Origin: Escherichia coli
GTDB lineage: Bacteria > Pseudomonadota > Gammaproteobacteria > Enterobacterales > Enterobacteriaceae
NCBI RefSeq assembly: GCF_003334315.1
Contig: NZ_QOWR01000023.1
DNA length: 64,000 bases
Strand: one strand, 5' to 3'
The notes below the pieces were generated by a model. It saw only the letters and a program-made list of their open reading frames with translations. It made no database searches and was not told where the DNA came from. Positions within the stretch are counted from its first letter, which is position 1, and every line of letters starts with the position of its first letter. A program made the translations under genes and the position numbers. This document shows positions 41,458 to 59,063 of this stretch, in pieces.

Positions 41458-41760
41458 AACTGTAACCTTCGAATTATGGAGTCAGAGACAATCTCAGACA
41501 CGAATGTCTGTAATCATACCATCACATCCGAATCCCTTCAGCCCTTTACATAGAGGTGCAAGGATGCTAATTGCAACAAACTAGTTTGGGTTTTAGCTAG
41601 TCCTTCATGGCGGATGTTGGTTTTGCATGTGAATAGTGCTTTAGTATCAATATTCCGATGTATGATAAATAACGGAAGCATTTGAATGGATAATATACAG
41701 TATACATTCTATTAATATTTATGATATAATTCTTTTTTTATATTAATGGTCTTATTAGTA

Positions 41761-44098: not shown

Positions 44099-45124
44099 AT
44101 GAAAGCGTTATCCAAACTGAAAGCGGAAGAGGGCATCTGGATGACCGACGTTCCTGTACCGGAACTCGGGCATAACGATCTGCTGATTAAAATCCGTAAA
44201 ACAGCCATCTGCGGGACTGACGTTCACATCTATAACTGGGATGAGTGGTCGCAAAAAACCATCCCGGTGCCGATGGTCGTGGGCCATGAATATGTCGGTG
44301 AAGTGGTAGGTATTGGTCAGGAAGTGAAAGGCTTCAAGATCGGCGATCGCGTTTCTGGCGAAGGCCATATCACCTGTGGTCATTGCCGCAACTGTCGTGG
44401 TGGTCGTACCCATTTGTGCCGCAACACGATAGGCGTTGGTGTTAATCGCCCGGGCTGCTTTGCCGAATATCTGGTGATCCCGGCATTCAACGCCTTCAAA
44501 ATCCCCGACAATATTTCCGATGACTTAGCCGCAATTTTTGATCCCTTCGGTAACGCCGTGCATACCGCGCTGTCGTTTGATCTGGTGGGCGAAGATGTGC
44601 TGGTTTCTGGTGCAGGCCCGATTGGTATTATGGCAGCGGCGGTGGCGAAACACGTTGGTGCACGCAATGTGGTGATCACTGATGTTAACGAATACCGCCT
44701 TGAGCTGGCGCGCAAAATGGGTATCACCCGTGCGGTTAACGTCGCGAAAGAAAACCTTAATGATGTGATGGCTGAACTGGGCATGACCGAAGGCTTTGAT
44801 GTCGGTCTGGAAATGTCCGGCGCGCCGCCAGCGTTTCGTACCATGCTCGATACCATGAACCACGGCGGTCGTATTGCGATGCTGGGTATTCCACCGTCTG
44901 ACATGTCTATCGACTGGACCAAAGTGATCTTTAAAGGCTTGTTCATTAAAGGCATTTACGGTCGTGAGATGTTTGAAACCTGGTACAAGATGGCGGCGCT
45001 GATTCAGTCTGGCCTCGATCTCTCGCCGATCATTACCCATCGTTTCTCTATCGATGATTTCCAGAAGGGCTTTGACGCCATGCGTTCGGGCCAGTCCGGG
45101 AAAGTTATTCTGAGCTGGGATTAA
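44099..45124 (+). CDS. tdh: L-threonine 3-dehydrogenase
   Basis: ORF track 341 aa; [32 protein letters not shown]; zinc-ADH motifs. Confidence 0.96.
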
Positions 45125-45127
45125 CAC

Positions 45128-45156
45128 GAAAAAGGGCTGGTATTCCAGCCCTTTTG
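45128..45156 (+). terminator. rho-independent terminator after tdh
   Basis: Hairpin GGGCTGG-tatt-CCAGCCC followed by TTTTG. Confidence 0.75.
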
Positions 45157-45362
45157 CCTGAGGATAATCCGTTAAATATGTAAAATCCTGTCAGTGTAAT
45201 AAAGATATCGTAATTGCGCTGATCTCTTATATAGCTGCTCTCATTATCTCTCTACCCTGAAGTGACTCTCTCACCTGTAAAAATAATATCTCACAGGCTT
45301 AATAGTTTCTTAATACAAAGCCTGTAAAACGTCAGGATAACTTCAGAGGTCGTCGGTAATTT

Positions 45363-46397
45363 ATGATGAACAGCACCAATAAACTTAGTGTTATTATTCC
45401 GTTATATAATGCGGGCGATGATTTCCGCACTTGTATGGAATCTTTAATTACGCAAACCTGGACTGCTCTGGAAATCATTATTATTAACGATGGTTCAACG
45501 GATAATTCTGTTGAAATAGCAAAGCATTACGCAGAAAACTATCCGCACGTTCGTTTGTTGCATCAGGCGAATGCTGGCGCATCGGTGGCGCGTAATCGTG
45601 GGATCGAGGTGGCAACGGGCAAATATGTCGCTTTTGTCGATGCTGACGATGAAGTCTATCCCACCATGTACGAAACGCTGATGACCATGGCGTTAGAGGA
45701 CGACCTCGATGTAGCGCAGTGCAACGCTGACTGGTGTTTTCGTGAAACGGGAGAAACCTGGCAATCCATCCCCAGCGATCGCCTTCGCTCAACCGGCGTA
45801 TTAACCGGCCCGGACTGGCTGCGGATGGGGCTTTCTTCGCGCCGTTGGACTCACGTTGTCTGGATGGGGGTTTATCGCCGCGATGTTATTGTTAAAAATA
45901 ACATTAAATTTATTGCCGGATTACATCATCAGGATATTGTCTGGACAACAGAATTCATGTTTAACGCTTTGCGTGCGCGATATACCGAGCAATCGTTATA
46001 TAAATATTATCTGCATAATACGTCAGTGAGTCGGTTGCATAGACAAGGGAATAAAAACCTTAATTATCAACGTCACTATATTAAGATTACCCGCCTGCTG
46101 GAGAAATTAAATCGAAATTATGCCGACAAAATTACGATTTATCCGGAATTTCATCAGCAAATAACTTACGAAGCATTGCGTGTTTGCCATGCGGTGCGCA
46201 AAGAGCCGGATATTCTTACCCGCCAACGGATGATTGCCGAGATATTTACTTCCGGTATGTATAAGCGCCTGATTACCAATGTGCGCAGCGTGAAGGTGGG
46301 TTACCAGGCGTTACTGTGGTCTTTCCGCTTATGGCAATGGCGCGACAAAACGCGGTCGCACCATCGCATTACGCGTAGCGCCTTTAATTTGCACTAG
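45363..46397 (+). CDS. waaH: GT2-family glycosyltransferase YibD (WaaH)
   Basis: ORF track 344 aa; GT2 N-terminus LSVIIPLYNAGDDF and DAD motif (VDADDEV). Confidence 0.88.
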   Translation: MMNSTNKLSVIIPLYNAGDDFRTCMESLITQTWTALEIIIINDGSTDNSVEIAKHYAENYPHVRLLHQANAGASVARNRGIEVATGKYVAFVDADDEVYPTMYETLMTMALEDDLDVAQCNADWCFRETGETWQSIPSDRLRSTGVLTGPDWLRMGLSSRRWTHVVWMGVYRRDVIVKNNIKFIAGLHHQDIVWTTEFMFNALRARYTEQSLYKYYLHNTSVSRLHRQGNKNLNYQRHYIKITRLLEKLNRNYADKITIYPEFHQQITYEALRVCHAVRKEPDILTRQRMIAEIFTSGMYKRLITNVRSVKVGYQALLWSFRLWQWRDKTRSHHRITRSAFNLH

Positions 46398-58779: not shown

Positions 58780-59063
58780 GTGATGGCTTCTGATAAAGAT
58801 AAATTTATAGCCCCTAGTATGCGCGACCAGGTGCTTTGTTCACAACTAATGACATTGTAATAGTTCTGTAACGTAATCATTAACATGCTCAAAAACTACG
58901 CAATTCGTTGATTAATTAAGAAATCTATAGAAAAAAGATAATAAACAGCAGCGGATGATTATTGAGGATTCAGCACGTTTTCCTTAATGTCATCTTTACC
59001 GGGAACCTAAACTAAAATTGGCGGCCGCGCATTCCCGGCGCGGGGTAATACGGAGATATCATC

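Follow-up and report, generated by a model that had tools for sequence, protein, structure and literature searches.

The three CTGT(C/A)A words upstream of waaH (yibD) in Escherichia coli are not a set of Pho boxes. They lie in the control region of this gene, an already known and previously characterised promoter, whose dominant and clearest regulatory element is a BasR/PmrA box. A preliminary description of the same DNA had read the words as possible Pho boxes and had overlooked this perfect box between the second and the third of them. Taken together, the evidence makes it reasonably probable that waaH is transcribed from an activator-dependent promoter with the BasR box in the proximal position and PhoB at the distal pair or tract (45276-45315). 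Good evidence stands behind the architecture and behind BasR as the factor at this box; the transcription start and the placement of PhoB at 45276-45315 are inferred. Coordinates refer throughout to the window, that is, the whole stretch of 64,000 nucleotides that was analysed.

WaaH transfers glucuronic acid onto the inner core of the lipopolysaccharide (LPS) when phosphate is scarce, and bioprocess strains make wide use of the waaH promoter as a switch that responds to low phosphate. To engineer this switch, the bases that carry the phosphate signal need to be told apart from those that carry the iron/BasR signal. The assignment of these bases also bears on a live dispute, namely whether waaH belongs to the Pho regulon directly or not. 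We describe no new kind of element; the value of the analysis lies in a corrected motif annotation and in a geometry by which the contested PhoB site can be tested.

The region corresponds to the E. coli kbl-tdh-waaH locus, with all three genes on the + strand of the window. The intergenic region (45125-45362, 238 bp) is flanked upstream by tdh (44099-45124) and downstream by an open reading frame of 344 codons, and the preliminary description's naming of this frame as yibD (waaH) agrees with the RefSeq annotation. A 301-bp query spanning the intergenic region found a match in all but 2 of 5426 complete E. coli genomes (5424), and the genes there carry the RefSeq labels tdh and waaH. In K-12, the intergenic region is of equal length, the counterpart of the gene is b3615, and coordinates are obtained by subtracting the window coordinate from 3,835,444. 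The region is AT-rich, as had been stated, with a G+C content of 36% vs 50% for the whole window. Its upstream boundary as a control region is the tdh terminator, which a strict terminator scan left uncalled because its T-run is only 4 long; at the other end, a GGTAA ahead of the waaH ATG is invariant across the alignment. The scan for consensus sigma-70 promoters and terminators made no calls in 45000-45500, a result that is uninformative for an activator-dependent promoter. Likewise, Rfam gave no match at E <= 1 for the region, and a full-text literature search with the motif strings returned no matches. The features discussed below are listed in Table 1.

Table 1. Features of the tdh-waaH intergenic region and of waaH, in window coordinates
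Feature	Position	Strand	Basis and remarks
tdh intrinsic terminator, GGGCTGG-TATT-CCAGCCC then TTTTG	45131-45156	+	sequence; inverted repeat
Conserved block A	45179-45230	+	cross-genus alignment; TGTAAAA 45179, CTGTCAG 45188-45194, TGTAAT 45195, CGTAATTGCGC, TCTTAT
PhoB-matrix match TGTAATAAAGATATCGTA	45195	+	9.3 bits
PhoB-matrix match TGTAAAAATAATATCTCA	45276	+	7.1 bits
Distal PhoB-like 18-mer TGTAAAAATAATATCTCA (the match of the preceding row), holds repeat 2	45276-45293	+	7.1 bits; about -61 to -44
Inverted repeat ACAGGCTT (45293-45300) / AAGCCTGT (45318-45325)	45293-45325		8/8 complementary; brackets BasR box
BasR/PmrA box CTTAAT-AGTTT-CTTAAT, direct hexamer repeat, 11-bp period	45298-45314	+	exact consensus match; about -39 to -23
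PhoB-matrix match CTTAATAGTTTCTTAATA	45298	+	6.8 bits
Predicted -10 hexamer TAAAAC	45325-45330	+	invariant 10-bp spacing from BasR box
Predicted transcription start, +/- 2 nt	45337	+	7 nt downstream of -10 hexamer; K-12 ~3,790,107
Shine-Dalgarno-like AGAGG (45345-45349), conserved GGTAA, waaH ATG (45363)	45345-45365	+	sequence
waaH (yibD) CDS, UDP-glucuronate:LPS(HepIII) glycosyltransferase, 344 aa	45363-46397	+	ORF list, RefSeq annotation, K-12 b3615

The words themselves exist as described: CTGTCAG at 45188-45194 (repeat 1) and CTGTAAA at 45275-45281 (repeat 2) and 45322-45328 (repeat 3), all on the + strand. The + strand of the 64 kb has just 10 occurrences of the pattern CTGT(C/A)A(G/A), and no other 151-bp stretch holds three copies. 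In dinucleotide shuffles of the intergenic region, three copies were reached in 0.02% of trials, a figure that overstates the significance because the pattern was defined after the sequence had been seen. A repeat finder returned as exact repeated words TGTAAAA, present three times (45179, 45276 and 45323), and CCTGTAAAA, present twice (45274 and 45321). The latter is a 9-nt direct repeat (45274-45282 and 45321-45329) with an offset of 47 bp, one copy of which lies at the distal half-site and the other at the -10 region; it is conserved only within E. coli.

It is highly improbable that the three words together constitute a PhoB-binding array of yibD, as had been proposed, and this reading is already largely refuted by geometry. 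The words are statistically unusual and all lie on the coding strand, but they are spaced 87 and 47 bp apart, which is not even approximately the 11 bp that separates the half-sites of a Pho box, and no word has a good partner half-site at this distance. CTGTCA is the classic Pho half-site and waaH is inducible by phosphate starvation; yet the TGTCAG of repeat 1 is penalised for its G, a base found there in only 2% of bound half-sites, the 18-mer of repeat 1 scores 3.0 bits, and repeat 1 is missing from a truncated promoter whose regulation by phosphate is still tight. Repeat 3, in turn, overlaps the conserved -10 hexamer. Nor do the words sit in a leader, where they had been placed, but in the promoter, at about -149, -62 and -15 relative to the predicted start (~45337). 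One element of the proposal stands: repeat 2 starts the top PhoB-matrix match of the region in K-12, although there is no canonical Pho box and the matrix scores are marginal.

These scores were obtained with an 18-bp PhoB matrix derived from 59 motif-bearing PhoB ChIP-seq sites (Fitzgerald et al., 2023), with which the whole window was scanned. As a positive control, the top match in 64 kb, TGTAATAGTTCTGTAACG at 58856-58873 (+), scored 17.4 bits (16.7 in a leave-one-out setting). It coincides with the yibT/yibL intergenic site reported from PhoB ChIP-seq (K-12 3,776,578), lies ~13.5 kb from waaH and is a genuine Pho box within the window. The second-best match, TGTAATCATACCATCACA at 41509-41526 (+), scores 14.1 bits and lies in the divergent hldD(rfaD)/htrL intergenic region (K-12 ~3,793,935); it does not appear in the list of 65 PhoB ChIP-seq regions.

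Upstream of waaH, the matrix scoring that the preliminary description had suggested as a check yielded weak matches only (Table 1), the best single one of which is equalled by 8.7% of shuffles (P = 0.087). For comparison, the leave-one-out scores of the 59 ChIP sites have a 10th percentile of 9.3 and a median of 14.0 bits, and PhoB-regulated promoters all score at least 10.1 with the same matrix (range 10-23). The three matches thus fall within the lowest 3-8% of ChIP-bound sites, those of 7.1 and 6.8 bits below 97% of them. In K-12, the match at 45195 drops to 6.0 bits, which leaves the 7.1 bits at 45276 as the intergenic maximum. The matches are less ordinary as a group: three of at least 6.5 bits have a P of 0.011 in shuffles of the region, and those at 45276 and 45298, with an offset of exactly 22 bp, give the best in-phase tandem sum in 64 kb (shuffle P = 0.002). 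A scan for half-sites highlighted 45179 (6.0), 45195 (8.9), 45209 (4.2), 45276 (6.0), 45298 and 45309 (3.9 each) and 45323 (6.0). With the pooled half-site matrix, no good half-site had a good partner 11 bp off, the only halves at this distance being two weak CTTAAT motifs, and no 18-mer in 45125-45362 contains two TGTCA-type halves as a direct repeat at 11 bp. A score of 7 bits would be compatible with a site of low affinity that goes undetected in ChIP.

The BasR/PmrA box presents itself very differently. Its full sequence, CTTAATAGTTTCTTAAT, has 0 mismatches to the consensus YTTAAK-N5-YTTAAK, and an exact match to this consensus occurs only once in the 64 kb when both strands (128 kb) are searched. 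It is a direct repeat of hexamers, it occupies the -35 position at a fixed distance from the -10 hexamer, and it is conserved upstream of orthologues. A scan of one genome per species yielded 54 waaH-related loci; the box is found in 20 of 49-54 of these, where it lies 64-71 bp ahead of the ATG. Among orthologues with 73% identity or more, nearly all carry it. The box-bearing loci come from at least 10 genera (Escherichia, Citrobacter, Leclercia, Salmonella, Cedecea, Enterobacter, Pseudocitrobacter, Superficieibacter, Siccibacter and Kosakonia), and in 20/20 of them a spacer of exactly 10 bp separates the box from a TAnAAn hexamer. Within E. coli, the core of the promoter (45274-45331) is identical in 4637 of 5426 complete genomes, and the core promoter of O157:H7 is identical to that of the window.

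The literature is consistent with this assignment. The consensus has been described as CTTAA-N5-CTTAA, and yibD was among the genes on which the PmrA motif was founded. Phosphorylated PmrA and QseB both shift a 105-bp yibD promoter fragment of UPEC in electrophoretic mobility shift assays (EMSA), and the surge in expression upon Fe3+ addition is lost in ΔpmrA. In Salmonella, yibD is regulated by PmrA, and PreA/QseB activates it 69-fold. Furthermore, expression of waaH in Fe(III) co-varies with that of eptA, arn, ugd and pmrR.

The invariant spacing also points to the -10 hexamer and, with it, to a start near 45337, both of which are predicted from the sequence. With TAAAAC at this position, the third CTGTAAA word is accounted for as the -10 region. 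The same succession of box, 10 bp and -10-like hexamer is seen in K-12 at arnB (TAAAAT), pmrR (CATACT) and eptA (GAGCAT), where the -10 elements were likewise assigned by sequence.

The box is bracketed by an inverted repeat (Table 1), which folds as RNA with -10 kcal/mol (z = -2.4). The bracket is kept with other sequences in some Citrobacter (CAGCCTT/AAGGCTG) and in S. diarizonae (GTGGCT/AGCCAC), and is broken in one divergent Escherichia and in S. arizonae. We considered an RNA leader or riboswitch and rejected it: there is no Rfam match, the hairpin energy is modest and the pairing inconsistently conserved, and the position of the hairpin, upstream of the predicted start, speaks against a role in the RNA.

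The distal PhoB-like element lies exactly 22 bp, or two helical turns, upstream of the BasR box and in phase with it. Its first half-site, TGTAAA, is good; an A/T tract follows, and the second half-site, TATCTC, is poor. In the half-site scan, TGTAAAA scores 6.0 and the second half yields nothing. The nGTAAA of repeat 2 is kept in Escherichia, in one C. amalonaticus and in Silvania, and beyond these only the A-tract is conserved. This tract (45278-45289) matches the UP-element consensus at about 9 of 14 specified positions, a resemblance that enters only into the indirect reading of PhoB control considered below. In Silvania, the promoter looks rewired: the PmrA box has the degenerate form CATAAT-N5-GTTCAT, a deletion has taken the usual -10 region, with TACAAT following in its stead, and the distal CGTAAAAATAGTAT element is kept.

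Phosphate-starvation induction of yibD, which the preliminary description had mentioned, is confirmed by published data. Expression of waaH is 46- to 80-fold higher in pst mutants or at low Pi (APEC, O157:H7), and it depends on PhoB, with 13872/11547 reads in the wild type vs 3032/2925 in ΔphoB (4.3-fold). Published studies concur in making waaH dependent on both PhoB and BasR/QseB, and are at odds over direct binding of PhoB.

If the effect of PhoB were indirect, the BasR/QseB box would be the sole response-regulator site, and a PhoB-dependent factor or physiological change would raise transcription; the CTGTAAA words would be incidental, one lying in a UP-element-like A/T tract (about -60 to -48) and the other being the -10. 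Such control is rather unlikely in our judgement, but it has arguments of its own. ChIP-seq and an earlier ChIP-chip study both found no PhoB signal upstream of waaH, and the authors of the former call the regulation indirect; however, the FLAG-tagged PhoB of that study is ~8-fold impaired at pstS, and the same authors concede that weak sites could be missed. The ~3000 normalised reads that persist in ΔphoB reveal a strong PhoB-independent component; on the other hand, eptA and basR reads are unchanged in this mutant, and the effect of PhoB on waaH is therefore not mediated by a general activation of BasR. The marginal matrix scores are in line with indirect control, as is the conservation of the distal element across genera, where the A-tract and not the TGT is kept, and an earlier in silico screen by pattern and matrix flagged no Pho box for yibD. 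Against this stand two reports of PhoB binding to the waaH promoter in vitro, one by EMSA and one, as cited in later work, by DNase I footprinting (Yoshida, 2011). Tight phosphate control is, moreover, retained by a plasmid-borne fragment of only 139 bp. Finally, no intermediary factor between PhoB and waaH is known.

This fragment, the 'modified yibDp' of the Lynch laboratory, runs from GTGCGTAATTG (window ~45207) to ...GGATAACTTC (~45345). On a plasmid, it is tightly off in the presence of phosphate and strongly on after its depletion, and it ranks among the tightest phosphate-controlled promoters tested. Mapped onto the window, it lacks the sequence upstream of ~45207 and, with it, repeat 1. 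According to the literature, an NsrR site in this upstream part was the reason for its removal. In the full-length yibDp, the upstream stretch lowers expression in minimal medium. The part of block A upstream of ~45207, including repeat 1, is dispensable for phosphate control.

Block A is nonetheless the longest stretch conserved across genera, and one may ask whether it (45179-45214) holds a functional PhoB site that acts from a distance or via a second promoter, TATATA/TCTTAT at 45225-45233. It is conserved in about 7-8 genera, namely in Escherichia, Citrobacter, Leclercia, Salmonella, Pseudocitrobacter and Kosakonia by alignment and in Siccibacter by reading of the raw sequences. In other genera, it has the form TGTAAA-N4-TGTCAT-TGTCATAAAT-N4-CGTAATTGCGC-N5-TCTTAT, with perfect TGTCAT half-sites; in E. 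coli, it is degenerate and contains repeat 1 and the 9.3-bit 18-mer (45195-45212). A weak match is conserved at this position in Citrobacter, Pseudocitrobacter, Kosakonia and Siccibacter (7.6-9.6 bits), but its K-12 counterpart reaches only 6.0 bits, and the half-sites of block A are spaced 10, 6 and 14 bp apart, never 11. Block A is also polymorphic within E. coli, being identical in only 1520 of 5426 genomes, and TGTAAT is lost in an APEC strain. Given, furthermore, that the promoter without 45150-45206 is still controlled by phosphate, that in minimal medium the full-length promoter is, if it differs at all, the weaker one and that the removed stretch is described as carrying an NsrR repressor site, we attach very little credence to a PhoB site in this block.

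Block A could instead, though we hold this to be improbable, be the operator of a further regulator. Compared by eye with consensus sequences, it gave no convincing match to CpxR (GTAAA-N5-GTAAA, 8/10), ArcA, TorR or H-NS motifs or to a TTGTCA-N17 promoter, and the resemblance to an NsrR half-site, of about 6-7/11 by the same means, is equally unconvincing. The window further shows an imperfect palindrome at 45191-45222, centred on GATATC. The corresponding centre in K-12 is GAGTTC, and the palindrome is therefore strain-specific; the GATATC centre lifts the PhoB score at 45195 from 6.0 to 9.3 bits.

Returning to the activator-dependent promoter that we favour, its parts can be put together as follows. 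A sigma-70 promoter with TAAAAC as its -10 element and no -35 element would initiate the waaH transcript about 26 nt ahead of the ATG. As it lacks a -35 element, it would need an activator of the OmpR/PhoB family, presumably bound head-to-tail on direct repeats that are phased at 11 bp and end 10 bp upstream of the -10. The 45298-45314 pair does end exactly 10 bp before TAAAAC, with the distal pair in phase, but this proximal pair is the BasR box and the -10 is a prediction. The proximal pair would serve Fe3+/BasSR induction as the BasR/PmrA box, and QseB also binds the promoter in vitro. The two distal helical turns (45276-45292) appear to hold the only credible PhoB-type half-site in register and would be the likeliest seat of the reported PhoB binding. 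Low-affinity binding of PhoB and induction by phosphate starvation would accordingly act at the 40-bp tract of four repeats (45276-45314), while repeat 3 would be the -10 region and repeat 1 part of a separate block further upstream, dispensable for phosphate control.

PhoB, BasR and QseB may even share this tract as one composite array of four repeats (45276-45314), although we deem this improbable. PhoB would then contact both the weak half-site of the distal pair and the BasR box itself, whose score as a Pho box is 6.8 bits; alternatively, it would bind cooperatively beside BasR. If so, a transient or BasR-dependent occupancy would explain how waaH can be PhoB-dependent and bound in vitro, and still be negative in ChIP.

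The scan for relatives also revealed waaH-like genes of 64-67% identity directly after tdh in the Citrobacter freundii complex and in Kluyvera. They have neither block A nor a PmrA box, and differ in terminator and leader; they probably represent a differently regulated paralogue or replacement. Another hit, on a 412-nt contig labelled Alicyclobacillaceae, is a fragment 99% identical to E. coli WaaH and almost certainly an E. coli contamination of that assembly.

Among known systems, ytfK offers a parallel for the conflicting evidence on PhoB: it is PhoB-dependent (~4-fold) and ChIP-seq-negative, its best match, at 10.9 bits, is sub-canonical, and the footprinting study that covers waaH also reports PhoB binding to it in vitro. 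Unlike waaH, it has other regulators (CRP; a reported sigma-S promoter) and no BasR box. The promoters of the PmrA/BasR regulon (arnB/pmrH, eptA/pmrC, pmrR and ugd, as well as Salmonella yibD) share with waaH the YTTAAK-N5-YTTAAK element 10 bp from a weak -10 and the lack of a -35; they are Fe3+/PmrA-dependent, and their products modify LPS. The waaH promoter differs from them in being also PhoB-dependent and bound by QseB, and in having two extra in-phase repeats upstream, with one PhoB-like half-site. By comparison with the Pho promoters (pstS, phoA, phoB, phoE and ugpB), it is without a TGTCA-type pair, scores 7-9 rather than 10-23 bits, has a BasR box in the proximal position and has shown no detectable PhoB occupancy in vivo. 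Yet it would have in common with them the absence of a -35 and repeats phased at 11 bp that end 10 bp before the -10, here a predicted one; like them, it is strongly induced by phosphate starvation, and its layout resembles the two-box (four-repeat) arrangement of pstS.
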